From Bilabrum cf. latius (lineage: Eukaryota): a stretch of DNA of 64,000 bases. A program made the position numbers and the translations under genes. Of this stretch, positions 35,901-62,945 are shown in pieces. Position 1 is the stretch's first letter. Every line of letters starts with the position of its first letter. The stretch lies in contig OZ237764.1 of assembly GCA_965178125.1 (NCBI GenBank), positions 558,001 through 622,000 of the forward strand, given 5' to 3'. The notes beneath the pieces are model-generated. The model saw only the letters and a program-made list of their open reading frames with translations, made no database searches and had not been told where the DNA came from.

Positions 35901-38900
35901 CAAGTGAGTTGCCTCCAACAGATGCCACTGCAACCACGGCTATCGCACCGGTCTGGTAGCTCAGCCTGCCGCCAGACCACACGATTCCAACGCTAGGGAT
36001 GCTCCCATCAGTGGCGAATCCAAGCACAGCCATCAAGGCCTGCCCGCATGCCACCTACAGCAGCTAGACAGACGTCATGTTCCCGTCTCTGATTCCAGCC
36101 CCGTCAATCAAGACGAATTGCATGGAGCCCGTCACATTCGCCTTCACGATTGCAACGGTACCTTGGCTAGGAAAAGGGGTGATACTCGGCGATTCTGCAG
36201 GTGTTAATGATGGTGTTGCTGAGTGAATGCTCAAAGCGCTTTGTGTTGGGTTGGTTGTCACGCTACCAGTGGGGCTGCTGGTCCGTGATGTGTTGCCAGC
36301 AGTAGGGGGTGAGACGCTGGGTGCCATGCTGCCAGTCACAGGCAGCGATCCACTTTGTGTCGGGCTCTGGCTTAGAACTGGACTGATCACTGGGTCGAGC
36401 GATGCACCAACTGACTCTTTACCGCTTATACTCGGGCTGGCGCTGATCGATGGGCTTGTACTGCTGCTGGTACTCGGGCTGGCGCTGATCGATGGACTTG
36501 TACTGCTGCTGGTGCTGGTGCTGGCGCTGATCGATGGACTTGTACTGCTGCTGGTACTCGGGCTGGCGCTGATCGATGGGCTTGTACTGCTGCTGGTACT
36601 CGGGCTGGCGCTGATCGATGGGCTTGTACTGCTGCTGGTGCTGGGGCTGGCGCTGATCGATGGGCTTGTACTGCTGCTGGTGCTCGGGCTGGCGCTGATC
36701 GATGGGCTTGTACTAATGCTGGTGCTGGGGCTGGCGCTGATCGATGGGCTTGTACTGCTGCTGGTACTCGGGCTGATCGATGGGCTTGCACTGCTGCTGG
36801 TACTCGGGCTGGCGCTGATCGACGGGCTTGTACTGCTGCTGGTGCTGGGGCTGGCGCTGATCGATGGTGTTGTGCTTGGACTGGGTTCGGCTGTAACCGA
36901 TGAGATCGCGGAAGTAGAAGGTACTGGCCGTCCAGAGGGCACGATCAGCCCGTTGGTGCCTGCAGCCAGGCACCCTTGCCCCGCAGTGGCACCCTGCTGC
37001 ATCCCCCAGAGAACAACAGCGCCTATCTCACCGCCAGTGTCTTGATTTCGGTGGCCAATCGCCCCAACAGCGATCACAGGATGTTGACACCCGGTGAAAT
37101 TCCCGGTGGCAAGGGAAGTTGCTAGCCGCGGGGCACCACCCAGATTCAGTGCGTTGGAGGTGCAGCAATCCGCGGATACAACCTCGTTGTAGCTAGGCAA
37201 GCCGGTTTCCTTGTCAAGACCAAGTACGTGGACTGCACCCGAGCTACCATAACCGCCTACAACAGCCTGGTCTCGCCCCACCAGCAAGCCGTACCCATCA
37301 CCTCCCGATGGATCCGGGATGGATGCCAGGCTGCTGCCGAACGACGAGTACTCCGTCGGCACTCCGTTTACGTTTGTTGAATTAAGCACAACGACTCGGC
37401 TGACGTTGGCTGGCAAGCTAGAGCTGATTCCCTCTCGGAACAGAACGTACACGCACACCCGCGGCTGCAATGTATCGCTCTTCAGCTCAGACGTCAAGGC
37501 TAGCTCATTCCACCCATCTTGATTGGCATCACCAATCCAAGCCAGCTCCATACCGAAATTGTCGGAGCGGTATGTGCTGCTGATACCCAGCAATGGAGAT
37601 ATGGGAGCTCCGTCCGCGGCATCGATGAGTTCTGTGTGGAGCACATACCCAGTGCCATTGAGTGCCAGAATGAAGACGGCACCGCGCTTGCTACCGCTCA
37701 CAGAAGCAAACCGCTGAGCTCCCACAGCTAGCAGTGCTGCACAAGACCCCGTGCATCCCAGGTCGGGACTGCTGTCGCGAGGCAGTGCTGCAAGCGCAGA
37801 TCCGAACCCGGTCTGTCTCTCCGCTGACGACGATAGGCCGTCAAATCCATTGGAGCCATGCTCGATCACCGCAAACTTTGACACGGTGCCGATACTCGTC
37901 AGCCACACGAGGCTCACACCGCCGAATGGCCTCCCTGCCCCAGCATCGTGCCTCCGTGCACCGATTGCGAGAACGTGCCCTGTCCCCTAGCCTGCGAGCT
38001 CGCCCAACCCAGCCAATGCACTCCCAAAGTTCGCATCCGAGCCACCGCGGATCCCGGCGCTGTATCCGTTAGTTCCTCCTACTTGACGTATACCGACAAT
38101 GCTACCATCCCCTGCCTGACTCGTGCGAAGCACAAAAACGTCGTTGTTGCTTCGTTCAGTCACAGCCATGTCATCTGTACCTGAACCGTCAATATCTCCT
38201 ATGTTGGCCACATTCCCACCAAACTTGCCCCCTGTGCTTGGAAGAGTGTTTAATGCCGCTCCCTGCGACCCACTTGCCAGCAACCTGAACCAAGTTGGAA
38301 TCTACAAGGGGGCAGGTGAAACACTAGTGCTGGCGCTGACCGATAGGCTGGGGCTGGCGCTTACACTTGGGCTGAGGCTAGTGGTCGGACTGGTGCTTGA
38401 GCTTTGTGTCGTCGAGGGGCTCGGGCTCGGACTAGGGCTCGAGAAACCACTGGAAGATGGACTGCCCGTACGTGGCACCGGCTACTACGCTCCCATGGTG
38501 CTATCCAACAGCAAGACACCTCCAATTTCATTCCCATGGCCATCGATGTGTGACCGCGCCCCCGCAGCCACCACGAGCCTCGACCCCCCGGAGAAGTTCC
38601 CTACTGCAATGGACGAGCCCATCCTGGTGCTGTGCCCACGATGCAGGTGGGAAGGGTCCGGTCTATCATCATCGCAGCAGTCCCACGTCGTCGCGTTTGC
38701 GTAGGATACACGGCCAGTGTCTGGGTCGAGTGCCAGCGCCCACACTGCACCTGCCTGCTCCAGCGATGGTCCCGGGTACGATTCTTGGCCTACCAGCAAC
38801 CCGATGCGAGTCCCGCAGCTACCAGAAGGGTTCGGAATATCCGCGAGACTGCTACCAAACCCAACTGCGCTGTGCAAGCGCGGCACCGTCGACTCATTCA

Positions 38901-40773
38901 GGACAAACGCACGGCCCCTCTGCAGAGCCGCACCAGGATTATAGTTGGCAATGAAGGTGCGCGCTGACATGATCACAGCAACATTCACGATGCTCGTGTT
39001 CACCTGCGTGGGTTGGAAAGCCACTGCAAGCTCTGGCTCGCCATCTCCGTTCGCATCGCCGACCCACGCCAGGGCGCGGCCAAACGAGCTGCTGTTGCTG
39101 TCGGCTGGTAGAGGAAGCAGCACCCCCCACTGGCTCGTGGCGGCATTGCGACGATGCATGATCCTCAGGGCGCTCAACACATACCCGGTGCCATTGAGAG
39201 AGAGAACAAATACGGCCCCGGGGGACTGACCTGCCGTCGTGCTGAACGCCGAGGCGCCCACTGCCAGGACCGCCCTGCAATAGCCCCTGCAGCTCGTCCC
39301 GGCCATGCCGGGTGGGAGAGCCGCGAGTGCAGAGCCGAACCGCGTGAGGCTCTCAGTTGCACTGCCCATTCCATGGAATCCAGACATTCCCTGCGCTATA
39401 ACCGTGTGGTTAACATAACTTCCAGCTCGGTCTAGTGTGACGAGTGCAACACCCCCCCGAACGGTGCTGGCAGGGCTGCTGTAGGTGGGGGCCCCGATAG
39501 CCACAGTGGTGAGCTTTGCGCCACCATGCAGTGCACCTAGCCCCGCGAGGCTTTGTCCGAAAGAATCGGAATTGAATATGAGCCCAGGTGGGGGCGTCAC
39601 CCCAATCGTCACACGCACCAGCTTGACAAGCGACAGGTCACCGGTGGGACTAGTGAGCCCCACCCAGACGCGCCTCGGCGACGATTCGGTGACTAAAAGG
39701 TCCTCCGTGCCCGACCCATCCACATCACCCACTGCAGCAACGGCCATCCCGATCCCCCCGCTGTTGCTCCATGCATTAAAGTCGTGGCCCTGGGACCCTT
39801 TCGCCCACATCGTGTATGACGAGCCGATTCGGGCGGGTGCGCACGCGCTGGTTGATGGTGATGATGGCGCTGATGGGGACGGGCTGGGCGACGGGATCAG
39901 GTGATTGAAAGTCCCGCACATGTCATACTGCAAGAAACGTTCCCGGAATGCCCCGGGAAACCGCACGAGCAGGGCATGCCTGGATGGGTATCCTGGGCCC
40001 GTGCCACCGGCGAAGCATGGTACCGGGTACTATACGTCCGGGCCGGGCCCAGTTGAGCTACAAGGCGAGCAACCCGTAGAAGCAGCTTCTACGGATGCTT
40101 GCTTCAGTGCGTCTTGGTCGTTCATGTCAATTAGACCTCCTTGGCTCGTGCGAACTGTGCTGTATTGGAGCACCGGCAAAGCCCTGCCGGTGAAATTGAA
40201 CCTGCGTAGGTTTGTGCCCCACTCCACGGCCAAGGCAACAGCAACTTCTAGAAAATTGCCACCGGTATCCGCTCCGCATACCCCTGGTGAGGCACACCTC
40301 GGCCAATTCTGAACAGCGACGTCCAGCGCAACCTGTCCTGAAGAGACCTGCGATGTGCTCCCGTCGCCGAGAGTCAGCCTCCCATCCTCGAGAAAAGTAT
40401 AAAAGGCCACATTAACGGACTTGTTTGCTGATGTCCATTGCATCACATATCTCGCAGCGCGCACCCCGTGGCATGCAGATGTGACTGAACGTGTCTCGAT
40501 CACAGGAGCGGGTGATGGGCTGTGACTGGGACTAAGCAGCTCATGAGATACCGTTGATAGCTACATATCGGCGCCATTACGCTCAACAACGTACGCGACA
40601 AAAGGACTGGCCGTTTCGTTAGCGGGCGAATTGCCGAAGCCCATGAACTGCAAGGTTCCGCTACCTTGCCCGAATTGTCCCTCGGCTGGACAAATGTTTA
40701 CTGCAGTTCCATGTGTAAACTGAGTTGAATCAAATAACGACACGACATGTAAAACAATGACTAATCGCAGCAT
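32956..40773 (-). CDS. FG-GAP/integrin-alpha-like repeat single-pass receptor A (~2,605 aa): two repeat clusters, Ser/Pro/Thr stalk, TM helix, long Ser-rich tail; requires TAG=sense
   Basis: Single frame from ATG 40773 to TGA 32956, with only TAG interruptions (gaps checked). Motifs VGDVDGSGTEDL, WVGDANGDGEPELAV, IGDIDGSGTDDM, FGSALA and VAIGAP. TM segment ALTIAVGAVGAILVVALIAGLVAYA. Confidence 0.85.
36428..36867 (-). repeat. Mucin-like coding minisatellite, ~42-bp unit x~10 (SPSISASPSTSSST)
   Basis: Repeated gggctggcgctgatcgatgggcttgtactgctgctggt on the + strand. Confidence 0.9.
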
Positions 40774-40914
40774 ATCGCTTCAGAAATGCAGCGCCGACTT
40801 TCGGTGTGGAATGGTCGCAGTTGGTCGCAAATGCCATTGGTGCACCTTCAAGGTGTGCATGCACAGACTAGACGAGTTGCAACGCAGTCGCTTTATTTCG
40901 ACCACCTATACGAA

Positions 40915-43900
40915 TCAATAAAGCTGTGACTATCCCGGCCGCAGCAGGCCCGTGCCCCCGTCCATCGAGCTGGCCCCTGATGTCCCAAGTCTGTCTCGAG
41001 CTCCTGGTCCAGCCTTTTCAGCTCCGAGTCTCCTGCCGCCGTACACCAGGCTCACGCGGCCATCCGGGTCAGAGGGAGGGGGAAGCGAGTCCATTCCAAT
41101 ACCATCAGAGACGATGCTGGAAGCAGCAGAGCTTACCTTTCGACGCGGTGGTGCTTCCGCTGATCCGATCCCTGAACCCCCAGCATTTATTCGCCCACCG
41201 GTCTTGCCGGCCCCGCTTGAGCGATAAGGTCCCTGCATAATGCCTTCAATTGAATTTCGATCATTCTATGATTCCGGTCTCGCTTGCATGTCCGTCATAG
41301 AGCGCCCCGTGCGCCACACATGGCGGGCCGTGCCTGCTCCTTCTCCGCCTGGACCTCTGCTGCGAACGTTCCACGTACTGCCGCGCGAACCTTTTAATGC
41401 TGCACCATCGTTGTAGACCTCTTCTATCCCCCTATCAATGGGACCACCAAGGCCAAATGCATTCGATGTACTGGCACTCACGGCCTCTTGCACGTCGGAG
41501 GCGCTGCGAATCGATGCGGCGGCTTTGCTTCGCGATGGAGACGCTCGCTCTTTCTGAGCAGATTCTGCTTCCGACGCCGCTGCATGCACCACCATGCGAT
41601 ACACTTCATCATCGAGCGCCGGCCCATCTCGTGGCTCGGACAGTATCTATGGCTGCACACTGGAATGCACGGCCGTGGCGCATGTCCCCGCTGCTGCACT
41701 CCCCTCACTCCCGCTGGCACTTCCATCTACAAAAGCCTTCGGATTGACACGTGTGTCTGGCCGACCTGCTCTTGGAGTCCTGTCAGTGTCTTGGTCCACC
41801 CCTGGTATGGCCTCAGAGCCAAGAAAGCCGCTCGGCTTTGCCTCGTGCGCTCTTCTGCGATGCTCGCGATGGTTTGAGGCAGCTGACAATTGAAAGGGTG
41901 ATGCAGTCGAAGAGAAGGACTTGGCATCATCATCAGCGCCGTTGATGGCACCTTTCAGATCAGAGCGGGCCGGGAGTACCCCGAGACCCCTGTGCTTAGA
42001 CCTCGATCTGCTGCGGGAGGTGGAAGCACTCCCATGCATCGTACCCGGAGAGGACCGTACCCTGATGCGCCGGATCGCAAGCCGTGCACTGCGAAGCGGG
42101 CTGCTGGGCGAGCTAGCGACAGCTGTAGCCACCGGGCTTCCTGCGCTAGAGGCACCATTAGGTTCTCCGCTGTCCTTGCACCCGGCTGCACCGCTTCGAT
42201 TGATAAACGCCGCTGGACCGGAAGAGTTCTCACTGTTGCCTGCTGCAGCGAGTTCAGAGTTGCTCGGATCAGAACCTCCAGCAAGCTCACCAGCTGATCC
42301 ACTGTCCTCATCAGACACAAACGCGGTACTCGTTGATTTCACTTGGTTCTCTTCCTCGGCCTCTCCATCCGCCCCTGATGCGACGTGCATGGCGTATGCG
42401 ACCAGCCCAGCAATAAAGACTATAAGCAGAATCCCGCAAGCTGCACCGACCGCAATTGTTAAAGCCGTAGATTCACTGCTGTCCAGACCCGAAGTTGTCC
42501 CAAGGTCAAGCCCGGGGACATCGCCATTGTCACCACCGTCCCCGTCATAATTTGTTGTTGCAGGACCCGGCCGATACAGAGTGCCGTCAGGATGAAGCAC
42601 CTGCCCACCAACTGCGGACTGGAGCTCCAAACCAATCCCTGCAGAGCCGCCTGCGCTCCTATCCAAGCGTACTAGTTCGCCGATGGATGACTGCCCGATG
42701 GCCTCCTGTAGAGCCGTTGTGCCCGCCTGCACGGATTCATTGCCAGTGAATCGCTCATGAATGGAACTAACAAGTGATCCTAGCATTGACCCTGGCTCAC
42801 AAGACGCGTTAGCTAAAGCCGCAATTGCTGCGAGCGCTCCCTGCGTCGAGTCTCTTGTTACAGCACATCTATGAGCTGCACCTTGATCGTTCATCTACAC
42901 TGCAATCCGCACTTCAAGAGCGAATGCGGCAGCGACGCTCCGCCATGGTGCCCCGATATCCGCCCGAGAATCATTCAGGCTGTTGCCACCAGACAGCAGC
43001 CTCTGAGCAGCAAAAGCAACGCCTGCTGAGCTCCGCTGTGCATCGCTTCGACCTCGCTTCTCCGCGATGCCGAGGCTAGCCAATGCCCTTCTCGCACTCT
43101 TCACATCACTACCTGCAGCGCTAGTCTCATCCACGGTGTCAGTGCTTGCAAGTGCCACAACCGCTATCGCACCGGTCTGATAGCTCAGCCTGCCGCCAGA
43201 CCACACGATTCCCTGCTATGGGATACTTCCACTGACTGGCACACCAAGCACAGCCATCAAGGCTTGCCCGCATGCCACCTACAGCAGCTAGACAGACGTC
43301 ACGCTCGCGTCTCTGATTCCAGCTCCGTCGATCAAGACGAACTACATGGAGCCCGTCACATTCGCCTTTACAACAGCAACGGCACCTTGGCTGGGTGCGG
43401 GCGTAGAGCCAATGCCTCCAGTTGGAAAAGCAGAAATGCTGGGGCTGGCGCTGATCGATGGGCTGGGGCTAGTACTGGTGCTGGCGCTAGTCGATGGGCT
43501 GGCGCTGCTGCTGGTGCTCGGGCTAAACGACGGGCTGGTGCTGCTGCTGCTTGGGCTGATCGATGGGCTGGCGCTGCTGCTGGTGCTGGAGCTGATCGGT
43601 GGGCTGGCGCTGCTGCTGGTGCTCGGGCTAAACGACGGGCTGGTGCTGCTGCTGCTTGGGCTGATCGATGGGCTGGGGCTAGTACTGGTGCTGGCGCTAA
43701 TCGATGGGCTGGCGCTGCTGCTGCTGCTCGGGCTAAACGACTGGCTGGTGCTGCTGCTGCTTGGGCTGATCGATGGGCTGGCGCTGCTGCTGTGGCTGTG
43801 GCTGGCGCTAATCGATGGGGTGGTGGTGCTGCTGGTGCTGCTGGTGCTGCTGCTTGGGCTGATCGATGGGCTGGCGCTGCTGCTGCTGCTGGTGCTGGAG

Positions 43901-45463
43901 CTGATCGATGGGCTGGCGCTGCTGCTGCTGCTGGTGCTGGAGCTGATCGATGGGCTGGCGCTGCTGCTGTGGCTGTGGCTGGAGCTGATCGATGGGCTGG
44001 CGCTGCTGCTGTGGCTGTGGCTGGCGCTAATCGATGGGGTGGTGGTGCTGCTGGTGCTGCTGGTGCTGCTGCTTGGGCTGATCGATGGGCTGGCGCTGCT
44101 GCTGCTGCTGGTGCTGGAGCTGATCGATGGGCTGGCGCTGCTGCTGTGGCTGTGGCTGGAGCTGATCGATGGGCTGGCGCTGCTGCTGTGGCTGTGGCTG
44201 GCGCTAATCGATGGGGTGGTGGTGCTGCTGGTGCTGCTGGTGCTGCTGCTTGGGCTGATCGATGGGCTGGCGCTGCTGCTGCTGCTGGTGCTGGAGCTGA
44301 TCGATGGGCTGGCGCTGCTGCTGTGGCTGTGGCTGGAGCTGATCGATGGGCTGGCGCTGCTGCTGTGGCTGTGGCTGGCGCTAATCGATGGGGTGGTGGT
44401 GCTGCTGGTGCTGCTGGTGCTGCTGCTTGGGCTGATCGATGGGCTGGCGCTGCTGCTGCTGCTGGTGCTGGAGCTGATCGATGGGCTGGCGCTGCTGCTG
44501 CTGCTGGTGCTGGAGCTGATCGATGGGCTGGCGCTGCTGCTGCTGCTGGTGCTGGAGCTGATCGATGGGCTGGCGCTGCTGCTGCTGCTGGTGCTGGGGC
44601 TGATCGATGGGCTGGCGCTGCTGCTAGTGCTCGGGCTGATCGATGGGCTTGTACTGCTGCTGGTGCTGGGGCTTAAGGTCATTGTGCTAGTAGTGGGCCA
44701 TGTAGATGGGGACGCAGAAGGGTTCACAGACGGCATGAGGAGACCACTGCTGCCCGCAGTAGGGCAATTCGATTGACCGTGACTGCCACCAGACGTGCCC
44801 CAGAGTAGGACCGCGCCTCGTTGTTTGTTGGGATGCCCGCCCCTGTGCCTTGGTGCACCCACCGCGATGACCGGCTCGCTGCATCCACTGAAATTGCCAC
44901 TCGTAACGGATGTGCCCAGTCTTGGATCATCGGAGACATCGATGGAAGCGCCGTCACCGTCTGTGCAGCAGTCCCCAGTGATCATGCTGCTGTAAGTGAC
45001 AATCCCAGGATCCTACGCATCCAGCCCTAAGATATGGACGGCACCTGGCTGTGGTCCACCACTAGCTAGGGCTTCGTTGTGGCCTATGAGAAGACCCAGC
45101 CCGCCGCAACCTGAGGGATCGGAAATCGAAGCCAAGCTGCTACCGAACGATGACAGGTGTGCGGCCGCACCCAGAACGTTGGATGCATTCAAGATCGCAA
45201 CAGATCCCACCCCGGCGGTTGCATCTTCACCCGGATTTCCGGTTAGGACCAGCACCATCCCCTGACCGACGGATACTTGAGTATCAACAAGCGTTGATAC
45301 GGCCAGAGAATGCCATCCGTCCCCGTTGGAATCACCCAACCAGGTAATGGCCCGTCCGAAGCGCTGCAAAGAGTCAGCCGTGGACAGAGGTACCATTCGC
45401 CTAAATGCAGACGAGTGAACGGCGTCTATCACCGAGAAGTCTACGACATACCCCGTCTCATTG
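40915..45463 (-). pseudogene. 3' part of FG-GAP/integrin-alpha-like receptor B (paralog of A), separated from its 5' part by a retrotransposon
   Basis: Fragments 45013, 43342, 42895, 41647, 41266 and 40930 are in frame with TAG breaks only; TGA at 40915. Shares VKANVTGSM(Q)FVLIDG, WSGGRLSYQTGAIAVVA and the TM segment ALTIAVGA with gene A. Confidence 0.8.
43436..44670 (-). repeat. Mucin-like coding repeat array with 177-bp higher-order units
   Basis: 36-54-bp SPSIS-anchored monomers. A 59-codon block (SPSISPSSSTSSTSSTTTPSISASHSHSSSASPSISSSHSHSSSASPSISSSTSSSSSA) recurs at a 177-bp period. Confidence 0.9.
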
Positions 45464-45618
45464 AAAACTGACATTGATTTGTACGTTACATCGAATCAGT
45501 TCTAGAACCTCCGGTTAGGGTTGCTAGATAAATGCGAGGGCGCGCTGGGTCCCGGCTCCTCGGGCGGTTGACCACCCGTGGTGCCACAAGGGGACCCGGC
45601 TGCTGGTGCAGCCTGCGC
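45464..45618 (-). repeat. Split direct repeat B2 (3' terminus of element), 155 bp
   Basis: Matches 46343-46497 with one substitution (gggaccc vs gggatcc). Confidence 0.95.
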
Positions 45619-46169
45619 GCCTGACGCGGGTAAGCAAAGTGCCTACCCACCGGAGGTATTATTCAATTCATACAATGCAAGCAGATGCGCTCGAAGTTCT
45701 AAACACCCAGCCTATGGCTGGGAAAAGTCACCCGAGCTCGGTGCCGCCCTCTCAGTGAGGTGACGACCCCTACATCCAAATCCGTCAGAGTGTCTGCATG
45801 GCCTGAACTAGAAAGACCCAAATTGTTCCGGTAGAAACTCGTCCACGCCTAGGTGCCGCCCTCTCCGTGAGATGACGACCCCTCTTTCTGCTGACTGTCC
45901 GCGAGTGACTTGCTGGCTGAGTCGATGCCGCCAAGATCACGCGCTTTCTGAGTGCCGCCCGCCGGCGTCCGGTGGCGCCTCTCATGTCCCTGATTGTGTG
46001 CCATGCCCTCTGCCCTGCCGGGTGCGCTGTCGCTGTGTGCCACCTCGCTGGCCCTGGGCAGTCCATCGCGCTCCAACCGTCGTGGTGCCGCGTAGTCCAC
46101 TGCTCCCAACTCGGGCCCAGAGTCATGACCCTCATCCTTCTACTTCCTCTACACTTTGCGGGTGGGCGG

Positions 46170-46343
46170 GAAAACTTTTTGCAAGCCGACTCAGAACTAC
46201 AATATCCTGTAGTACGTGTCTTATTGAGCTCGGCCGAGACCACTGTACTCGGCGTACCCTCGGGAAGATGAGTCGAGCTTCACGCAAATCAATCCCAGTT
46301 TCTACAGTTCCGGTCTTACTGGTTGTAACCCCAGACCTGCTAA
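46170..46343 (-). repeat. Split direct repeat A2 (internal), 174 bp
   Basis: Identical by eye to 52907-53080; directly abuts B1. Confidence 0.95.
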
Positions 46344-46497
46344 AAACTGACATTGATTTGTACGTTACATCGAATCAGTTCTAGAACCTCCGGTTAGGGT
46401 TGCTAGATAAATGCGAGGGCGCGCTGGGTCCCGGCTCCTCGGGCGGTTGACCACCCGTGGTGCCACAAGGGGATCCGGCTGCTGGTGCAGCCTGCGC
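46343..46497 (-). repeat. Split direct repeat B1 (internal), 155 bp
   Basis: Matches 45464-45618. The B1|A2 junction reads cagtttttagcagg on the element strand. Confidence 0.95.
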
Positions 46498-46572
46498 CGT
46501 ACTGACCCGCAGATTTGGCCACCTGTGGCCACTGCGGCTTGCCGCCCTACGCATACTGACCTGTGGGTCACG

Positions 46573-47706
46573 TTAACTTGCTGCTGTGACTGCTCCCCGG
46601 TAGGCCGCGAGCATCGCTCTTGCCCTCGATCTGGTGCTCATGCCCAGATAGTAGTTCGCTGTCTCGGGTGACCGCCACGCAGCTTGTTGCATCAATTGCT
46701 CAATTGAAATGCCCCCTTCCGCCGCCATGGTGGCTCCCGTTCGCCTCGTTGAGTGCGTAGTGAACCTGATCACTGGCGTGCCTGGCCGCCGGTACTTGGT
46801 AAGAATGCTCCGCATAGTTGCTGTCCAGCTCTTGGGATGCCATTTCCCAGTCTTTCGCGCATCCGGGTTGATGAAGCGTAGTCCACTTGCTCCTGACGTG
46901 CTCGTGAGTGCCGTATTCGTCGGGTTCCGGGCTCTCATCGCTGTCAGCGCTCTCGCTCGTGCGCGCATGCCCAGAGCTGCGAGCTCGGCAACTCGAAATG
47001 GGCCACCATCGTCCAGCGGAATGACGGCCTGCTCTGGTTCATCTCTGTCCTTGGTTGTTTTGCGACGCATGCTGGCCACGACCCATGTACTGTCCTTGGA
47101 CTTATACTCTTGCAAGTCTCCTAGCTTCAGGTTCAGGATTTCCTTGGATCGCCCAAGGATGATGCAGCCATGGATGAACGCATCCCAAGCGCAGAGCTCC
47201 TTGTCTGAACCCATCTTGATGACTTGATCATTGACGTACATCACGTCCTCGGTTGGGATCACTCGTGCTCGCTTCCGGCGGTTGCCGAGTAGGTGCAGCT
47301 ACTTGGCCCGCCCTTTCGGTAATTTCCGACCCAGCCGCATTGTTTCGTCGGCAATCGGGGCGCCAATCTCCAAAAAATGCTCGACCAAGTGGCCAAATTC
47401 TCTCTTGATGGTGCCCTCGCCGACCTTGTCGTCCCTAACCCTGACGTACAGGTAGCTCAGGATGGAAGAGCAGCGTGTGGGGGACTCGTCTCGTGCCTCG
47501 CTGGCGTACTTCTTGAACTTGGCGATGCTTTTCCGCTTCTTATCTTCAGTCTCCTTGGTCTTGATCATGCTGAGGGCGATGGCTCCCGCCAGATCCGCCG
47601 AGCGGGCTGGAGGGCGGTGCTCCACCCGCGGCCGTGTGGTCGCCTCCGTCAGGCTCTTCATCATGGTGCATACCTTTGCTGCAATCTGATCGTCTCGTGT
47701 GTCCAT
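46573..47706 (-). CDS. Tyrosine recombinase of the retrotransposon (~377 aa)
   Basis: 47299-47706 and 46573-47262 are joined by one in-frame TAG. Catalytic pattern GRSKEIL (R), HSTRRTGAT (HxxR), AAWRS (W) and ANYYL (Y). Ends TAA. Overlaps the end of pol by 161 nt. Confidence 0.92.
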
Positions 47707-50305
47707 CTGCTGCTTGGTGCAGGGCGGCGAGCAATTCTGGCTGCGACGGAGGCCACTCCTTTCCCTTGATCAACGGATGCAACAGTATCGTCTCCTCACA
47801 ACACGTGACCGTCACCGTGGATACTCCTGCTTGCCCCCACAATGTGTGAGCTGTGGCGTGGTCAGCCTTTCCAAGTGCGTCGTTAGCAGCTACCCAAGGC
47901 TTGCTGCGTGGTAGATGCCGTGGAACAAGTGTAATTTTCCTAGAATCCAGGATATCCGCTAGCCTCGTCAGGGTTGCTTGCGTCCTAACTGTGGAGCCCC
48001 TGAAAGTGCACAACTGGACACAAGTTCCAGCGTTATCACAATCCCAATATATTGTAGTCGGAGTGCTTGGTCTGCACTGCAGAGCTGCTCTGAGTGCTCC
48101 CGTTGCTGCTACTATGGTCTCACGGGCTGTTGATGACTTCTCCGGGTCCGTGCTACCTTCCGTTCCCCAAATATCTCGGGGAAGTGGAAACACTAGGGCT
48201 GAACAAATTGGCCTTCCAATACTGATAGCTCCGGTGGATACACTAGCGTCTGAACTGCCGAATATCGAAATGGCGCCAGACTTCGATCCCGGTTTGGCTC
48301 CGAGTCCGCATGCGGCATCCTGGGGATCTGGAGCGCTCCGCTCAGTATTTATACCCAAGAGCTTTGACATCGACGTAGTTGCGTCTCGCATTAGCATCCC
48401 CTGGAGAGTTTGTACTGCTCGCGCTATATCTGGGCGTAGGAATGCGTTGCTGCCGTTCCGTTTGGCTTCGTTTGCCACAACGACGAGTGCCGCACTGCGG
48501 GCCATCTGGCCCCTACTGCCTCCTGCATACGCTAGCGCCTTCCCCTACAGATGTTCCAGTAGGTCAACTGGAATGCGCAGTCGTTGCCTTGATGCCCGCA
48601 TCGTGGCCTTCAACGTGATTGCGAGATCCTTCTGCTTGTCCGGTGGGGCTCGCGCGTCGATCGTAGGTGACGTCGAGATATCCATTCCCAGGAAACGCAT
48701 CTTTTGGCTTGGCAATGTCAGTTTGCTGATGCTCATGCTGAAACCTGCCTGTCGTGCGGTGAGGACGGAGGTGAACATACCCGCCCATGCCGCTGGTGCT
48801 TGTCGTTCTCCCCCGGCGAAATCGTCCATGTATACCGACTGAAGGAAGCGCTTTGCTCGGATGATGTCCGCCAACGACTCGGTGGCTGTCTGTAGATGGA
48901 TGGGCGAGTGCACCATTCCCATCGGCATGCGAAAAAAATGTGCCGCTAGGCCGTTCGCGCTGAACCACGTGAAGTTCCAGGAAGCCGGGTGAGCCTTGAA
49001 GGCATAGAAAGCTTTTGCCACGTCCCAACTATATATCCATGACCCTGGATCCAATTGAGCTGCAAATTCTGCTGGTCCATCTAGCCCAAAATGCAGCTAT
49101 GCTGCATGTGGTCGTAGTCCCGAGAAATCCACGACGAGCCTGGCCTTCTCACTTGGTACTGTGCGTCGCTGCATGCCCACGCCGGGGGTGAGCTTCCAAG
49201 CGTATTTCCGGACCAGAAAGGCTCTCGGCATATCTGATGTTGCCGGTGCCGATGTAACTCGAATGAATCCTGCCTCTGCCTGCTTTCGAATCTCAGTGGA
49301 CAGGGCTGATTGGGTCAAGGTACCCTCGTGCCAGTCGACGTCTCCACCGTCTCGTGGAGCCTTGATCGCTGCGTCAGGCTCGAGGTACCAGTGGAAAGGC
49401 GCGCCATACTTGCCTAAGACGTGCAACACCTCTGCCACCGGACAAAACTGCGCGGTGCAGTCTGAGCATGTAGCTAGATGCATCCAATACAGTTTGTCCC
49501 CACTGTGCACTTGCATGCTCCTCAGTGCGCTGCTCTGCGAGTTCATGCCGCTACGTTGCTCCACAATAGCCCTCTCGGTGTGCTCTGCTCTGGCTCCCTG
49601 ACGGGCTACAAGAGTTCGCTCCTGGGTGGCCTGCTTTACAGCGGACGACTAATTCCTCGAGGCCTCCTCCCGGGTCCCCCCAAGGCTAACTCTAGCATCA
49701 AGGGATGGTCCCGTGGATTTGACAGGCAGTATGAGTCCCCCTTCGCCGTGACCTAGTCGGACCTCTCCTTCTAGTGCGAACGTCGGAGGCACTCTGCCGC
49801 CTTGCTGCTGCTACGTCGGTGCTGATGTTCGTGCTGCTTCCTACTACCGCGGCTGCACTTCGACCTGGCCCTTCTGCGCCTCGCGCTGGGGGTGCTGTCG
49901 TCGCGCCGCTAGTAGATGTTCTGCAAGGGCTCGTGCTCGCCTGGGGGGTGGCGTATGCTCCGCCTCCCGCATGCATCCCAAATCTCGCCGAAGCGCCGCC
50001 CGGAGCCACTACTGGGCTACTCGTGGTGAGCTGGCGCTGATTGCGCGCTTTCTGCAGTCCTTGGCCGAGAATCGTTCCGCTTGATGTTTGTGGCCCCGGG
50101 GTCCCGTTGGGAACAGCCGCAGAAGGTCAATCAGGTCTGGGTCGGGGCCCTCTCTGGGGTGGTCTAGCCATGAGGAGAGTATACGAACGCTGGCTGCTTG
50201 CTGTTTGGGTGATAGCGATTGAAATCCTCTTTGTACACAATCATCCCAAAGCACCCCTGTTCTGATTAGCCGCGCTTTTACTTCGTCCACTCCCCTCGCC
50301 TCCTT
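47546..50305 (-). CDS. pol: Reverse transcriptase + RNase H (pol) of the retrotransposon; first in-frame ATG at 49972
   Basis: Continuous frame with TAG=sense. RT motifs RLVVDF, WDVAKAFY, MPMGMVHSP, VYMDDF and RFLGM. RNase H acidic motifs SDAS, ARE, DCDN and NDAL. Ends TGA at 47546. Confidence 0.92.
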
Positions 50306-51646
50306 TTAGGAGCTGGCCTGGGAATCGCCGTCGTCGTCGCTGTCGTCCGCACCTGCGCCAGACGCCGCGCCTTGACCTGCCTTGACACGATTGTCTTGTC
50401 CCGTGTTCCCGTGCCGGTGGTGCTTGTGCTTCGGCCCGTTTTTCTTCTACCCGCGCTTGCCCCGCCCGCGCTTCTACCCCAGGCGCTGCTGGCCCTGGTG
50501 GTGAGCGCGCTTGGCTGCTTGCATTGCCATTGCCGCGAAGGCCGACTCCGGATGCATCTTCGTGGGGCTGCTGTGAATCTGCATGGCCATTGCTGCACCC
50601 GCTGCAGCTGACGATCCCATTGGCGAGGCGGACGTTGATGTCCCCGAACCGCTGGTTGCGCTGGATGCCGATGACGTGGGCGGGACTCCGCTGCCCGGGT
50701 ATCTGCTCCCGAGCGGCCCAGTGTTCACGTTGAAGTATTGCGCCAGCCATACTGCCAACTAGTGCGGCATCAGGTGATTCTGCCGGTCCATGGTGTCCTG
50801 GCCGCGCCTGGGTGGCTCTGGGAGGAGAGTTGACGGGATGCTACGCAAGAGCAGCTGCATCGTCCCCGCATCGGCTGCAGACAGATCTGGATAGAATCCG
50901 ATCCTAGTGGCGAGCATCAGTTCGACTACCATGCGGCCCAAGCCACAATGTCCACCTTGCATGCTGACGCTCCGAGCAAACCGCTCCTTTACTGCGGCCG
51001 CTGCGCCCTGCACCGATCGAATGAAGGCTCTGGCGGTAATATCCTTGGACTCCGGGTTGCTCAATGTCAAATCCGAGACGTCCTCCTGCACCATTGCGTG
51101 GTGTCCTGCGTACGCATGCCACAGTGCCCGATCCCACGGTGGGAGATCGTCCAGCCCCCGGACTCCTGCACGAGTGACGATAGTGTTCAACCGATCGGCC
51201 GCCTTCACGATCCGATCCCAATCTCCAGCGTGTCCTGCTGCCCTCAGCGCACCTGAAGTACGCTCGCTCAACCGGTGGATGTAGGCGGTTATCGTCGTGG
51301 TCTTGCCCGACCAGACATATGTGTGGGAGTCCGCATCCAGATACAGCGGCAGGAGGTAATTGATAGGACCGACAAGCTACTCCAACACCCAGCTCATTCC
51401 CTGGGGCAGCCAGAGAGTCACACTGGAGTGAGCTGCGCGTACCGCGGTATCACTTGCCTTAGGCTGGTACTGTGTGCCTGCCAGCACCCGATGTCCGAAA
51501 TCCATACGGGCAGTTTTCAGCTTGTCGCCCAAGTCGTGAAGGGTCGTACGAAGGGCGTGAGCGACGACCGCCTGCAGGCGGTACGTAGGCCATCTCTAAG
51601 CTTTTGCAGGTGCGCTCGCTGCGCTCCCCGCAGCCCCGCCCCAGAA

Positions 51647-51686
<40 letters not shown>

Positions 51687-52876
51687 GCTGCCCCTGACGA
51701 TGCTCCCGCAGGGTTCATCAGTGTTGACGTGAGTTCCCTCACGGCCATTTTACCGATTTCCTTCATGAGCTCCTCGTCCTTTGGCAGAATCGACTGGAAC
51801 AGGTCATCCACCTTACCAGCTAGAAATATTCCTATCTTCTAGTCCGGGAGAACGTCGGCGAGCGTCTTTAAGATCCGAGCCGTGCGTTGGCGCCCGTCCC
51901 CCGTCTTGCACTCCTCACGCATGGCATCCAGCCGCGGAACCCACCATGCGACAATGGCGTTAGCACGATGTAGAACATCACCTGCTGCGCTCCACGCCGC
52001 CTTCTCCTGCGTGATGAACTGGGTCGCCGCGTCGTCGGTCGTGGGCCAAGCTGTTGGCGGGAGCTTCTGGACCTGCTCGACCTCGTCAGCCTCTGCATCG
52101 ACGTCATCGGGGTCCTCTCCAGGAGCTTCCCCATCTGCATCGTCTTGTTCTTCTCCCAGGGCCTGTGTCGCGTTTTGTTCGTTTACCACGGCTGCGATCG
52201 CCTTCGCAAGCACGTGGTCCGGGTAGCTGTCCTGCTATTCCAACTTCTCAGTCGTAAGTCGCCACCCCCAATTAGAGGCGAAACGTGTCATTGACAGCAG
52301 AGATGTCCGTTTGGCCGCTCGCAGCGGACCATACGCGGACTGCAACACTGCTGCAGCTCGTAGTAGTTGATGTAGGAGCCCACCGCCCGCAGACGTTGTG
52401 AGGACCGCAAACCATCCAGCTGCACCTGTTGACAGCTGCGCTCCTTCCTAAGCAGGGAAGTTACGCTTGCAGTCGTGCAAAACTCGTTTCAGCTCCTCCT
52501 TGGTAGGACGATGAGGTAATTTCACGTACAGTGAAATCACCCATGCCGTGGCCGTCATCAGGACTGCCCGTTTCTTCTGGTTGTCGTCCATTCCCACCGA
52601 CAGTAAGGTCTTAAAGTCATTACCCAGACCGTTTGCTGTTGCCGTGTCCATTGGTTTGTCGCCCGCTGCTTGGTTGCTGATAGCCTCGATGAACCCAGCA
52701 TGACCTCCGGCGCCCATTGCTGTTTCCATCCATGCTTCCCAGGATTCACCAACGCAATTATCCAGAATATTTGCGGATTCTTGCTTTGCGATAGCAATCA
52801 ATGCCTTGTGCGGCTAGGAACCTTGAAGATGCGATAGAGCCGCTGCAGCCTGTGTGCCCTGCTCCACCTGGGCCAT
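50306..52876 (-). CDS. ORF1 (Gag-like by position, ~856 aa) of the retrotransposon
   Basis: ATG 52876 lies 30 nt after repeat A1. Fragments 52448, 51839, 51596, 50759 and 50474 are in frame with TAG breaks only. Basic Lys/Arg/His-rich C-terminal segment. Ends TAA 50306-50308. No zinc knuckle recognised. Confidence 0.8.
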
Positions 52877-52906
52877 ATTTCACAGTGAAGTCACGCGCAC
52901 TTTTCC

Positions 52907-53080
52907 GAAAACTTTTTGCAAGCCGACTCAGAACTACAATATCCTGTAGTACGTGTCTTATTGAGCTCGGCCGAGACCACTGTACTCGGCGTACCCTCGG
53001 GAAGATGAGTCGAGCTTCACGCAAATCAATCCCAGTTTCTACAGTTCCGGTCTTACTGGTTGTAACCCCAGACCTGCTAA
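52907..53080 (-). repeat. Split direct repeat A1 (5' terminus of element), 174 bp
   Basis: Identical by eye to 46170-46343. Confidence 0.95.
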
Positions 53081-54785
53081 GTTCCAGCACAAAGACCGCC
53101 CCACTGCGTTGGCCAGCTGCTGATGTAAATCCCGGGGCGCCAACGGCAAGCTGCATGGCGCACGTGCTGTTGCACGGCCCTGCACGCACGTCAGCAGATT
53201 CCACCAGCCCAAGTGCGGCACCAAACTCGGTGTCATGCTCAACAGACGCTGACAGCCCAAAGAATCCCAGCGAGCCGTGCTCGAGTACATCGTACCGCCT
53301 AACCGACAGGCCTCCAGTGGCCAGCCGAACCAGAGCCACCCCGCCCTTCGGGATGCTTGATGCTGAAGAGGGCTCGTGACCCGGGGCACCAATGGCCAGG
53401 GCGGTGACGATAGCCGTTGCATGTCCATTACTTCGACTGTATCCCGCTAATGAAGCTCCGAACTTTGCACCGTTCCCACCAACAATGCCCACATCTGCGC
53501 CATGTGTTCCCCCGATCGCAGCCATAGATGTTGCACTGGCATCGCCGGTACCACTGGTGAGCACGATCCATACCTGATTGTCCTCTGCCTGCGAGATCGC
53601 CATGTCTTCAGTGCCCGACCCGTCGACGTCTCCGATGTTTGCAATCGCGTTGCCGAGCTGGGCGTCGTTGCCGATGCCGTTGAAGTCGTTGCCCTGGGCC
53701 CCCCTCGCCCACAGCCGGTACCAGGTTGGCGCGGCGAGTGCAGCCGAGCACGACTCGGTAGTGGTGCTGGGTTGGGGATATGTTGACGTGCTGCCTGTTG
53801 ATACGGCGAGCTGTCGCTGCGGCCCGGGTGCAGCGATTTGTTGGAGGGCCAGGGCACTGGCACCTGCATCACGATGTGCCAGTGCCAGCCCTGTCGCGGC
53901 GGCAGCCGGCCGAGCTGGTTTCCCCGCGACGGCACTGGATCTACCCCTGCTGTTGGTCGCGTGCATTGATCTGGTTTTCCTGTGACTGCACATGTCAAAC
54001 CTTAAATCACCGTCCATTTCCACGAGAGGCAAGTACAGCTGCAGCACAGCTGCACCTCTCTGTGTTTCGCAGAGCTGCGGGGGCGACACTTTGGCCTGAG
54101 CCTGCTTCTCAGCACGTTGGATGCATGTTTTATCCTCGGTACATCCACCCGCAGCCAAATCTGATCTGGCATTGTCTCGACTACTGCCCAGATGGCTGCC
54201 TGACCTGGCATTGCTGTGCTATCTGATTGGGGACAGCCAATCGAACATCTGCGCAGCTAAGCCCGCATTATCCCGACTACAGCTGAACTAAATGTAAATT
54301 ATTAGCTCAATAATGTTATTCTGGACTGCGGGAACAAATGATAGCCCGGCAGCAGGCCGAATTACGGCGTCAACTGCAAGCTACCCAGCATGCACCTGCG
54401 CCGATGTCCTGCCAAAAAGGGACAGCTCCCCAGAGTCGGAGAATTTAAATAAGTCTATGGTCAGCGAAGAGTCCTCATAAGTCCAAGCTGACGATGTTGC
54501 AACAGATGAAATGCCCCCGCAATGCTCGTGCTAGCCTCCAACAACCCGTACATCGCGAGTGTGCTTGAAAGTGAATTCTCTCTCTGATGCAGAACCCGTT
54601 CGATTGGAGTACCCTAATTCGTACTACCAAGCGGCGCGCAATAATCTGATGACGGGCTTCCGGTTGCTCTCGAAGTGAACGTGAGCTGTGTCACTCCGGC
54701 TCAGCAAATCTTCAATTTTTGAGCTACACGATCGAATGGAAGCCGCAACATACGCAATCTGTAAAAGTGCAAAGGCAGCATACAT
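53080..54785 (-). pseudogene. 5' part of FG-GAP/integrin-alpha-like receptor B (intact allele would be ~2,084 aa)
   Basis: Probable ATG 54785 with signal-like MYAAFALLQIAYVAAS. N-terminal domain aligns with gene A. Motifs IGDVDGSGTEDMAI, FGASLA and LAIGAPG. The frame runs into the element after AVFVLEL and stops at TAA 52758. Confidence 0.78.
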
Positions 54786-54902
54786 CGCTTTACTCCCCTC
54801 TGTCGCAGTTGTGCAGAGAGAATATAAGCAAGGAGATCTGTTGATTGCATTCATCTTTGAAATATGCTTGGTCGCACAGTAGAGATTCCGGCACTGTATC
54901 AA

Positions 54903-56064
54903 CTAAGAAACACAATCACCGTGTGCCCCCGCCCTTGCTGCTTCCAGCACGTCCATATCCATACCATCCACCACCCCGGTTACCCAAGCTCCACCAGCCA
55001 ACTTGCCAAGCCTCAGCCGCTTCTCCAGCTCCATGGGCCTCCCCTCCCTCGCGGCCTGAAACACCATCGAGGCATCCCTGTGCGCTTCATGTGCCCGCCG
55101 CCACCGCACCAGCTGGTCCCCCCGTCTGGGATCCAGGTGCTTCACACGAGCCAGCTCCCCTGCGGGCACTAGCTCAAAAAGCTTGCCCAGCACCTCCCGG
55201 GGCCTGGCTCCCCGCTTGCTGCTGTACAGAGCTTTAGGCACCGGCAAATGCTCCGTCATGCTCCCGTACGACATGAACGACTGCGTTTCCCTGCATGCCA
55301 CATCCAGCCACGTCGCACCGGTCTCGCTGTCTAGCCCTTGTTGGTACACCCTTGACCCCCAGTGTAGGAGGATCGCGAGAGAGGCAGATGATTCCTCATC
55401 GCACGCTTGCCGTGCAGCATTCAATACTACCGCTTGCGGCTTGCGATCAAGCAAGCATCTCAAAATCTCTTCATGCGTTACAGACTACCAACCTGTATCC
55501 AGGGTACCGGCTCGACACATATACTCGAGGGATTGCAGCGCGCTTTGGCGAATGAAGCTCAAAACCAGTGTCACTTGTTTCTGCGTGATATCCTTCATTG
55601 GGAGCTCTCAATCAGTCACTCACTGTACTTTCACCATTCAAGGCAGGACACTAGCACGACATGATGCACGGGGTAGACTTCTTGCTCACACATCGCAATC
55701 TTGCAGACTTGGACAGAGCTCGCTACAGCACTGCAGGGCGATCGAACGCTCCAAGTGCATCGGTTATACCCAAATACTGCGTGAAAGGCAGACACTCTGT
55801 GTTGAAATGAACCATGGCGACGATGTGCTTTGCCTGTCTTGACTAGAGTTGCATCGTGCTCACCCTGTGGAGCTCGCCATCGAATCTTGAGCTCCTGGGC
55901 CAATGTGTCCTGCATAGCTTCTCTTCATACGTATCGAATAATGCAATGGCGAGGGCATCATTGCGATCATTCAAGGCTTGAAGAAAGCGCCTTTTCAATG
56001 CTGCCCACTCCCTGCAACCAATAAAACTGAAGATTGTAGCAGAAATCCCAATCAGGAAACACAC
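54903..56064 (-). CDS. Hypothetical helical/ankyrin-like protein, copy 1 (5' exon structure unresolved; no stop at its expected end)
   Basis: Last exon encodes GATWLDVAC, FQAAREGR and LEAARAGAHGDCVS (ankyrin-like). Upstream ORF 55843-56064 is in another frame, so an intron is presumed. Confidence 0.45.
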
Positions 56065-56385
56065 AGCTAATGGTTAAATATGTACCTATACAATAAGTCC
56101 TACACACCTCATCTGGTCAACGCAACTATTCTCAGGGCAGTCCTCGCGAGGACGATAGCCAACCCGAAGTGTACTTGTGTAAGCCTCTATCAAGGATTCA
56201 TGCGACACCATCCTACACAACTACCCACACGATGCAAACGAGCAAACGCGAACTCAAGCCCAAATGTATTAATGTGTCCAGACACCAGCAAACTGTGATA
56301 GATTCATACTTTAGCTTCTGTGAGAGTGAGAACCAAACAAACATTCCACCGTGACCGCCGGCGAAGAGCACCTTGCAAGGCAACC

Positions 56386-57534: not shown

Positions 57535-57698
57535 GACTTCGGTGCGTTCCGTTTTGCTTCAGCCTCTTGTTTTGCCTTTTGCCAATCACGCGACTGTTGC
57601 GTTCGATTCATGGAGATTCTTGTTTATTCTAGAAACTGCATCGGATTGGCCAGCGTGTACTTCAGGGCTCGAGCTGAAGCCAAATCTTGTGCGGCTCC

Positions 57699-61237: not shown

Positions 61238-61558
61238 AACAAATGCTCATATATGCACTCATACGATAAGCCGTACACACCTCATCTGGTCAACGCAACT
61301 ATTCTCAGGGCAGTCCTCGCGAGGACGATAGCCAACCCGAAGTGTACTTGTGTAAGCCTCTCTCAAGGATTCATGCGACACCATCCTACACTACTATCCA
61401 CACGATGCAAACGAGTAAACGCGAACTCAAGCTCAAATGTATTAATGTGTCCAGACACCAGCAAACTGTGATTGATTCATACTTAAGCTTCTGTGAGAGT
61501 GAGAACCAAACAAACCTTCCACCGCCGGCGTGACCAAAGAGCACCTTGCAAGGCAACC

Positions 61559-62722: not shown

Positions 62723-62945
62723 GACTTTGGTGTGTTCCGTTTTGCTTCAGCCTCTTGTTTTGCCTTTCAGCTTCTGAGGTCGGCAGGGCTCAGGCGGGTC
62801 CAATCACATATGAACGAAGACCCTTTTGCCAATCACGCGACTGTTGCGTTCGATTCATGGAGATTCTGGTTTATTCTAGAAACTGCATCGGATTGGCCAG
62901 CGTGTACTTCAGGGCTCAAGCTGAAGCCAAATCTGGTGCGGCTCC

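Follow-up and report, generated by a model that had tools for sequence, protein, structure and literature searches.

Results

An Ngaro-type retroelement inserted in a host gene

The minus strand of the window (the whole 64,000-nt stretch of DNA analysed) carries a recently active Ngaro-type tyrosine-recombinase retroelement of 7.6 kb, at approximately 53081-45466. It is bounded by split direct repeats: A1 (52907..53081, boundary ±2 nt), which forms the 5' end, is identical to A2 (46170..46343) over 174/174 nt (100%), and B1 (46343..46497) matches B2 (about 45466..45618), which forms the 3' end, at 154/155 nt (99.4%). The repeats stand in the order A1-[ORFs]-B1A2B2, with B1 directly adjoining A2; the one deviation from this order is a 551-nt spacer (45619-46169) between A2 and B2. 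The element interrupts a host FG-GAP-like gene on the same strand. The 5' half of this gene (53082..55607) aligns with a paralog at 32956..40779 up to the insertion point, the 3' half (40915..45465) was delimited by paralog alignment and in silico excision, and removal of 53081..45466 in silico turns the gene back into a 2358-codon open frame. Given the near-identity of both repeat pairs and a host frame that is restored on excision, this copy of the element is young. Other contigs part from the window sequence at 53082, which supports the outer boundary of A1. The differing flanks at this position, together with a depth several-fold over that of the flank, indicate that the element family has several copies; a second copy was not found within the 64-kb window by either blastn or tblastn.

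The element has three ORFs, all on the minus strand. With TAG read as glutamine, ORF1 (50306..52879 including its TAA; codons 50309..52879) has 857 codons, nine of them in-frame TAG; its first ATG lies at 52876 and it ends ...DSQASS-TAA at 50308-50306. No Pfam family matched ORF1. A single-sequence AlphaFold model shows helices throughout and a disordered basic/acidic tail (the final ~140 residues are predicted to be disordered), and its mean pLDDT of only 38.8 makes it too poor for fold searching. We regard ORF1 as a putative Gag, the only hints being its basic tail and its place as the first ORF of the element. In a coding-potential scan the ORF1 frame scored highest of the three; the frame that ORF1 shares with pol was best until ~50110 and weak from 50110 to 49750, with noise too high to decide.

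ORF2 (pol, 47546..50305) has 919 codons, seven of them in-frame TAG, and ends in TGA. Its predicted reverse transcriptase occupies approximately residues 350-640, where the RVT_1 match (E 2e-06, 28.1 bits) is just below the cut-off of 29.6 and the YMDD box is readable. At E<=0.001, 464 library proteins match pol, and the three distant ones that were scanned (P0006, P0008 and P0009) pass RVT_1. Residues 641-919 matched no Pfam family, and a PDB profile search likewise gave no RNase H; a DAS...E...D...ND pattern, kept in P0002, P0003 and P0005, is the one feature that hints at an RNase H in this part of pol. By Pfam, RVT_1 is the only domain in the whole of pol, with no methyltransferase. The absence of a methyltransferase sets Ngaro elements apart from DIRS1 and PAT. 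ORF3 (46573..47769), in the +1 frame, overlaps pol by 224 nt and ends in TAA; it probably encodes a tyrosine recombinase, with a Phage_integrase match (E 2.6e-4, 21.2 bits) below the cut-off of 27.1 and a readable H-x-x-R motif (HSTRR). Pfam gave no match to the rve integrase in any ORF, and neither a protease nor an integrase was detected in the element.

A single TAA separates ORF1 from a conserved segment that has no AUG

ORF1 and pol are in one frame, separated by a single TAA (50306..50308, minus strand, context AGC TCC TAA AAG GAG), after which the frame stays open for 919 codons to the TGA at 47548-47546. The first in-frame ATG of pol is codon 112 (49970..49972). The coordinates given for this junction by the first-pass annotation, namely the TAA at 50308-50306, the first pol ATG at 49972 and the 111 codons before it, are all correct. 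Taken singly, these features are not far from what chance would give: a shared frame has a probability of 1 in 3, a 111-codon open run ~0.08 (from the off-frame density of TAA and TGA) and 111 codons without an ATG ~0.14. The same annotation had cautioned that 111 open codons might occur by chance; it is the homology described below that lifts the segment above chance.

Residues 9-110 of pol (49976..50281, minus strand), which lie wholly upstream of the first ATG, match P0038, a protein of 124 aa from a diverged sister element on a different contig (6,907 nt, also encoding P0005), at 39/106 identical positions (37%; pairwise E 2e-17, library-wide E 7.1e-08). From the TAA to the first ATG the frame is thus conserved coding sequence lacking any AUG, and since the first ATG is codon 112 the segment cannot be made from an AUG within it. 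Its position right after the TAA means that some bypass of the TAA is needed for its synthesis. As called under table 11, P0038 has its first residue aligned to V9 of pol, which would fit a stop just upstream in this 37%-identical family as well. The initial "M" of P0038 may represent a genuine AUG, in which case separate initiation would be favoured, or the gene caller may have translated a GTG or TTG start as M; P0001, for its part, opens with an M opposite the valine of ...MQVHSGD... in the pol of the window. The segment is modelled as helical (mean pLDDT 62.8) and this fold had no PDB match (best E 2.3). The TAA falls at a domain boundary, with the disordered tail of ORF1 before it and the conserved segment beginning eight codons after it; we estimate that a stop placed at random among the 1,777 codons would lie within 10 codons of the start of the conserved segment in ~1% of cases.

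The stop in other copies

The TAA recurs in near-identical copies of the element. A 1,043-nt contig from another data set (X2, covering 49572-50614) spans it unchanged, all six of its differences falling elsewhere. Two further contigs (X5 and X6) also span the TAA, with no change at 50306-50308 among the 40 of 72 rows listed; there are 7 (X5) and 6 (X6) differences beyond those listed, and a change at the TAA may be among them. In the pol frame, variants between copies lean synonymous, as the read-through proposal would have it (11 synonymous to 14 not, versus 4:21 and 5:22 when read in the alternative frames). The ORF1 contigs show no differences and the 1,043 nt spanning the stop show six, so that similarity there is too high to reveal selection. 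Related subfamilies coexist, as seen in a 7.5%-diverged variant of 49108-49373 and in contigs that share the terminal region and diverge at 46576.

Searches for more distant relatives of the junction gave no matches. A word-indexed protein search found no match for pol, a 199-aa junction-spanning protein query had no match at near or shorter lengths, no related loci were found in the metagenome, viral or genome contigs searched, and the exact 37-nt string beside the TAA did not occur in metagenome contigs. Other contigs matched 34 nt at 50325-50358, which we judged to be an acidic low-complexity coincidence and set aside. As a separate observation, the X6 contig is continuous and unspliced over 49103-51635, with no joint listed near the TAA; that X6 and X9 represent RNA is a guess, and the continuity of X6 carries no weight on expression or splicing.

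RNA structure and context of the stop

The small hairpin noticed in the first-pass annotation, CUCCU-AAA-AGGAG (50298..50310, minus strand), is present as a 5-bp stem with a 3-nt loop, the TAA consisting of the last T of the stem and two A of the loop. As a read-through signal it fares poorly, and we judge it to be a chance feature: it folds at -5.4 kcal/mol (z -1.19), 24 of 200 shuffles were as good or better, and since it contains the stop itself it would lie inside the ribosome and presumably be melted with the stop in the A site. No downstream stimulatory structure was found in the 71 and 111 nt after the stop, which fold worse than shuffles (z +1.03 and +0.93), and the 181 nt around the stop show no structure above shuffles (z -1.10). 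Known leaky stop motifs include stop-CARYYA and UGA-CGG/CUA, and in most eukaryotes a UAA with A as its next base terminates strongly. The context here, UAA-AAG-GAG, matches none of these leaky motifs.

The host genetic code

The premise that TAG is a sense codon in this organism is borne out by the host ORFs. Seven of them (14,298 codons) contain 121 in-frame TAG, against 147 and 145 in the off-frames, and no long host ORF is without an in-frame TAG. Those same seven ORFs have no in-frame TAA, with 57 and 58 in the off-frames; over nine host ORFs, usage at the rate of TAG would predict ~42 in-frame TAA and none is seen (Poisson P 4e-19). TAA is shut out of host reading frames and is therefore not simply a glutamine codon here. 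As to termination, all nine host ORFs that end within the window (two duplicates among them) stop at TGA and none at TAA, a small sample in which 0/9 has a P of about 0.1-0.15 if one fifth of genes used TAA. Within the window, TAA ends only ORF1 and the recombinase ORF of the element. Under table 6, 47546..52879 is one ORF, and the long host ORFs keep the same limits under table 6 and TAG=Q.

Alignments at individual TAG codons give mixed residues. Opposite the table-11 stop of P0001 stands Q in the window, in P0002 and in P0003; opposite the stop of P0003 there is Q in P0002, T in the window and A in P0005. At TAG 587 of the window, P0001 has Q and P0004 has W, and at TAG 403 both have P. The alignment of host paralogs is uninformative on the meaning of TAG, and no tRNA genes were found within the 64-kb window.

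Discussion

We tentatively favor translational read-through of the UAA as the best explanation for pol synthesis, at a probability of roughly 45%. In a full-length element RNA, just one UAA would stand between ORF1 and the reverse-transcriptase ORF, both in the same frame. The majority of ribosomes would terminate at the UAA and release the ORF1 protein; a minority would decode it by a near-cognate tRNA, probably one for glutamine, and enter pol, giving an ORF1-Pol fusion and a low Pol:ORF1 ratio. That the bypass would be read-through, that it would be partial and that ORF1 would act as a Gag are steps that we infer. The proposal of a UAA read-through switch goes back to the first-pass annotation, and it stands in part: (i) the TAA is a real non-sense codon; (ii) it is followed by a conserved segment without an AUG; and (iii) the element is young and multi-copy. 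What has fallen away is the proposed signal, as neither the hairpin, nor any downstream structure, nor a leaky context lends it support. It also counts against read-through that the near-identical copies may all descend from one defective master.

This last point leads to a scenario that we consider unlikely on balance but that has to be weighed in some detail, namely that the TAA is an inherited defect. The ancestor would have had a continuous ORF1-pol, or TAG or CAA at this position, and a master copy that gained the TAA would have been mobilized with Pol supplied in trans by sister families. In an organism where TAG is sense, a single transition suffices to turn TAG into TAA, and TAA copies could spread where related subfamilies coexist, as the 7.5%-diverged variant and the contigs diverging at 46576 indicate they do. 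That so few differences separate the copies, too few to show selection, and that folding tests gave no read-through signal are both in keeping with such a defect. Nevertheless, a random stop would fall so close to the conserved segment only ~1% of the time, the sister protein P0038 begins at the same boundary, and TAA-bearing copies are present at several sites, one of the insertions being very recent. A different possibility, which we regard as distinctly unlikely, is that ribosomes terminate and reinitiate, or initiate at a non-AUG codon, a few codons past the UAA and so make a separate Pol. Only eight codons lie between the stop and the conserved segment, there is a GTG at pol codon 6, P0038 has its called start at the aligned position, and the UAAUG stop-start coupling of SART1 provides a retrotransposon precedent (PMC10275272). 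Against this, there is no AUG over 111 codons, the called start of P0038 may be a GTG or TTG in disguise, and the shared frame is left unexplained, albeit with a 1-in-3 chance of arising anyway. Moreover, known reinitiation after a long ORF requires nearby RNA structure (PMC10275272), and none stands out here.

Bypass at the RNA level, in which splicing or a subgenomic start beyond the UAA would give a pol RNA free of that codon, seems improbable to us. The gag-pol junction of Tca2 does carry a minor internal promoter (PMC2194720), but a transcript starting past the UAA would still have no AUG ahead of the conserved segment, and since host genes in the window run as long ORFs without interruption, introns look rare. 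We give hardly any credence to the idea that UAA is itself sense (UAA=UAG=Gln, as in table 6) and ORF1-pol a single 1,777-codon gene. The single ORF at 47546..52879 under that table and the fact that 9/9 host ORFs ending in the window use TGA and none TAA do agree with it; however, the count of zero in-frame TAA versus 121 TAG in 14,298 codons, where ~42 were expected (P 4e-19), speaks strongly against it, and the identical limits of long host ORFs under table 6 and TAG=Q are a further point on that side.

The host data would also accommodate a more specific, rather speculative and in our estimation unlikely form of leakiness, in which UAA is an orphan codon that the host avoids both as sense and as terminator, and whose leakiness this Ngaro family exploits without any RNA structure. 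An altered release factor would read UAA poorly and no tRNA would read it well, such that a built-in leakiness would set the ORF1:Pol ratio; the recombinase ORF likewise ends in UAA. Should this be true, it would be the first recoding signal to exist only through the variant genetic code of its host, and tyrosine-recombinase retroelements would gain their first described translational control. If UAA is read through, the element would link control of the Gag-Pol ratio in retroelements to termination in organisms where UAG is sense and UAA non-sense, a natural structure-free leaky UAA would offer a handle on release-factor specificity in such codes, and annotators would be warned that "two ORFs" in such genomes may be one translational unit. 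Alternatively, if the TAA is a shared defect, the locus would amount to an ordinary young Ngaro insertion that has knocked out a host surface-protein gene.

A close parallel for read-through comes from gammaretroviruses of the murine leukaemia virus type, which make Gag-Pol by read-through of a UAG with a pseudoknot ~8 nt after the stop. As in these viruses, one stop is all that interrupts the common frame of a gag-like ORF and pol, and the part of pol after the stop has no start of its own. Unlike them, our element has UAA rather than UAG, no structure above shuffles, and a host in which UAG is sense; it is also a tyrosine-recombinase retroelement, with protease and integrase not detected. 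For reinitiation, LINE-1 and SART1 offer a comparison. In LINE-1, translation of ORF2 is AUG-independent. ORF2 of SART1 is made by termination-reinitiation at an overlapping UAAUG with a downstream structure (PMC10275272). Our element resembles both in having its second ORF directly past the ORF1 stop, reinitiation from a bicistronic RNA being their solution, and differs from SART1 in lacking an AUG for 111 codons and any structure above shuffles.

There is precedent for an in-frame stop between gag and pol of a retrotransposon. In the Ty1/copia element Tca2 of Candida albicans, gag-UGA-pol is in frame with a candidate pseudoknot, pol is expressed from a gag-pol RNA, and the junction alone gave no read-through in a yeast reporter (PMC2194720). 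The reporter result means that an in-frame stop is, as anatomy, no proof of read-through; the two elements share this anatomy, with UGA in Tca2 and UAA here. For Ngaro elements themselves (DIRS order), the literature searched yielded no description of ORF2 translation, nor of reverse-transcriptase synthesis in DIRS/Ngaro generally. The A1-[ORFs]-B1A2B2 repeats known from, for example, Cafeteria burkhardae (PMC8547959) are accompanied here by a similar content, with ORF1 Gag-like by position, ORF2 carrying a predicted RT and a putative RH, ORF3 probably encoding a tyrosine recombinase and methyltransferase not detected. Departures from Ngaro are the long ORF1 (857 aa), a lineage-specific pol extension of ~350 aa before the RT, the 224-nt overlap of pol and recombinase and the 551 nt between A2 and B2. 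Finally, nuclear codes in which UAG is sense and UAA is kept as a stop have been described for Iotanema spirale and the rhizarian exLh, with UAA as the primary terminator in I. spirale (PMC5304391). The host resembles both in having TAG in frame and TAA never, and unlike I. spirale it ends 9/9 of its ORFs in the window with TGA.

Results

When TAG is taken as a residue, the minus-strand frame 52879..47546 of the Ngaro-type element contains a single internal stop. ORF1 opens at its first ATG (52876) and closes after 857 codons (C-terminus ...DSQASS) at a TAA (50308-50306); pol (ORF2) continues in the same frame for 919 codons past the TAA to a TGA (47548-47546), its earliest in-frame ATG being codon 112 (49972-49970). 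This translation bears out the first-pass annotation, which had ORF1 and pol in one frame with one TAA between them, and all of its coordinates proved correct.

Chance alone would give 111 open codons with P about 0.08 and 111 codons lacking ATG with P about 0.14. Pol residues 9-110 are matched by P0038, a 124-aa library protein encoded on a 6,907-nt contig (39/106 identities; pairwise E 2e-17; E 7.1e-08 in a search of 1.84 billion proteins), and on this homology the segment from the TAA to the first ATG is conserved protein-coding sequence, starting 8 codons past the stop. The contig of P0005, an RT fragment (35% identical), is also 6,907 nt long. In a two-sequence AlphaFold model of moderate confidence (mean pLDDT 62.8) the N-terminal segment of pol is helical, and a PDB search with the modelled segment gave no match. 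The first residue of P0038 aligns to pol V9, and its initial 'M' could stand for a GTG or TTG start codon; in the pol of the window, the residue facing the initial M of another related protein, P0001, is the valine of ...MQVHSGD.... Where P0038 begins is compatible with a stop shortly before this point in its own family, a comparison that cannot speak to the identity of that stop or to the frame of ORF1 there.

Split direct repeats flank the ORFs of the element on the minus strand: A1 (53080-52907) is identical to A2 (46343-46170) at 174/174 positions, and B1 (46497-46343), which adjoins A2, matches B2 (45618-45464) at 154/155. PMC8547959 describes the layout A1-[ORFs]-B1A2B2 for Ngaro elements, in which ORF1 is termed 'Gag-like' on synteny, ORF2 encodes RT/RH and ORF3 encodes a tyrosine recombinase; the layout here is the same. 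A 551-nt spacer (45619-46169), unusual in a B1A2B2 layout, separates A2 from B2; it holds 35-nt repeats (45737-45771 and 45849-45883, 91% alike), and 241 nt of it (45900 to 46142) are skipped in variant contigs of 4/4 runs. Pfam domain matches were weak: RVT_1 in pol (28.1 bits, E 2e-06, cut-off 29.6) and Phage_integrase in ORF3 (21.2 bits, cut-off 27.1). ORF3 (47769..46573, minus strand) is read in the +1 frame relative to pol, shares 224 nt with it and likewise ends in TAA. ORF1 matched no Pfam family. A HMMER search of the protein library with pol returned 464 proteins with E<=0.001, almost all of which align to residues of about 370-600, and the 3 distant ones scanned all pass RVT_1. RNase H was found in pol neither by Pfam nor by PDB profile search; the only trace of it is a motif pattern like that of RNase H.

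The element interrupts a host gene (40915-55607, minus strand), a large, FG-GAP/Ser-rich, surface-protein-like gene. Its flanking open frames, 55607..52758 and 45495..40915, are both 43% identical to the neighboring paralog (40779..32956), with alignments that meet at the insertion point. In silico excision of 53081..45466 yields a stop-free frame of 2358 codons; the four alternative joins tried gave 26 or 44 stops. By analogy with LTR dating, the near-identical repeats and restored host frame mark the insertion as recent. The intact paralog directly downstream (32956-40779) has 2607 codons, and both genes contain long Ser/Pro/Thr-rich tandem coding repeats (43400-44700 and 36400-36900) that create long, spurious ORFs in several of the frames. 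About 3.9 kb of sequence is segmentally duplicated (54925-58753 and 60097-64000; 94-98% identity); the duplication takes in the 5' end of the interrupted gene together with a pair of near-identical ORFs (56386-57558 and 61559-62746).

In the host code TAG is sense and TAA is not, as both codon counts and ORF limits indicate. Over the 14,298 codons of seven long host ORFs, TAG stands in frame 121 times, TAA 0 and TGA 0 times; the two off-frames contain 57 and 58 TAA and 147 and 145 TAG. Scaling the TAG count by the CAA:CAG ratio, about 42 in-frame TAA were expected in nine host ORFs and none was seen (Poisson P 4e-19), and long ORF limits are equal whether TAG alone or both TAA and TAG (table 6) are read as Gln. 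Alignments lend modest support to TAG as Gln; the stop called under table 11 in one sister fragment aligns to Q in three relatives; for the stop of another fragment, the aligned residues are Q (one relative), T (the window) and A (P0005). TGA terminates 9/9 host ORFs with a 3' end in the window (two of the nine being duplication copies), and among well-scoring ORFs a TAA stop is confined to ORF1 and the recombinase ORF of the element. Every long ORF has in-frame TAG. Genes run to great length without interruption and are separated by short intergenic gaps; the longest (13680-27155, minus strand; 4491 codons) combines a beta-helix region with ephrin-receptor-like Cys repeats and a C-terminal part that is multi-pass. 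A UAG-sense code that keeps UAA as a stop is already known, but in that report (PMC5304391) UAA is the main terminator.

Contigs from four sequencing runs were aligned to 45300-53300. A 1,043-nt contig of run X2 (49572-50614) spans the stop with six differences from the window, none at 50306-50308; contigs of X5 (46542-50614) and X6 (49103-51635) also span it, with no change at these positions among the differences listed (40 of 72). Because X2 word depth was higher in element contigs (153-251) than in a flank contig (59), depth not being equal to copy number, and because X2 and X5 hold contigs with different sequence beyond 53082, the data suggest several copies. Synonymous and nonsynonymous variants between copies stood at 11:14 in the pol frame; the other two frames gave 4:21 and 5:22. 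The first 111 pol codons hold only one variant. Two variants of 49108-49373, upstream of RT, coexist in X2 (depths 176 and 314; 20 differences, 7.5%, one an in-frame AAG-to-TAG change), so the family looks mosaic. In 4/4 runs a contig that shares the 3' region of the element departs from it exactly at 46576, beside the recombinase stop, which suggests that sister families have the terminal region in common but carry another recombinase gene.

Discussion

Making the conserved pol segment requires bypass of the TAA, and the family that bears this stop moved recently. Our preferred explanation, held at a probability of about 0.45, is that ribosomes would read through the UAA from ORF1 into pol, because this would account for the common frame, the missing AUG and the position of the stop at the boundary. 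The palindrome overlapping the TAA (CTCCT-AAA-AGGAG) forms a weak hairpin (-5.4 kcal/mol, z -1.19; 24/200 shuffles fold equally well or better) and, since the stop lies within it, would presumably be melted with the stop in the ribosomal A site. Sequence starting at the stop was less stably folded than its shuffles over both 71 and 111 nt (z +1.03 and +0.93), and the 181 nt spanning the stop give z -1.10. We know of no leaky stop context that UAA-AAG-GAG fits.

The TAA could instead be an inherited nonsense change, with Pol rescued in trans; subfamilies do coexist and the copies are nearly identical, both of which would allow this, but the boundary position of the TAA and the start of P0038 count against it, and we consider it rather unlikely. 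Pol might also be made by reinitiation or non-AUG initiation, for which SART1 provides a precedent (PMC10275272); this seems to us a doubtful prospect. Bypass of the TAA at the RNA level is quite improbable, and that the TAA is itself a sense codon is barely credible. For Tca2, PMC2194720 indicates that having gag and pol in frame across a stop is not necessarily enough by itself to direct read-through.

The literature, searched mostly at the title/keyword level, yielded no account of read-through in tyrosine-recombinase retroelements; among the matches listed, 'readthrough' was absent from DIRS-focused papers, and co-occurrence of 'Ngaro' and 'stop codon' gave no title on translation. The production of Gag-Pol by stop-codon read-through is well known. 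Its use by a tyrosine-recombinase retroelement would be new, and the variant code of the host would give the present case, as read from sequence, added interest.
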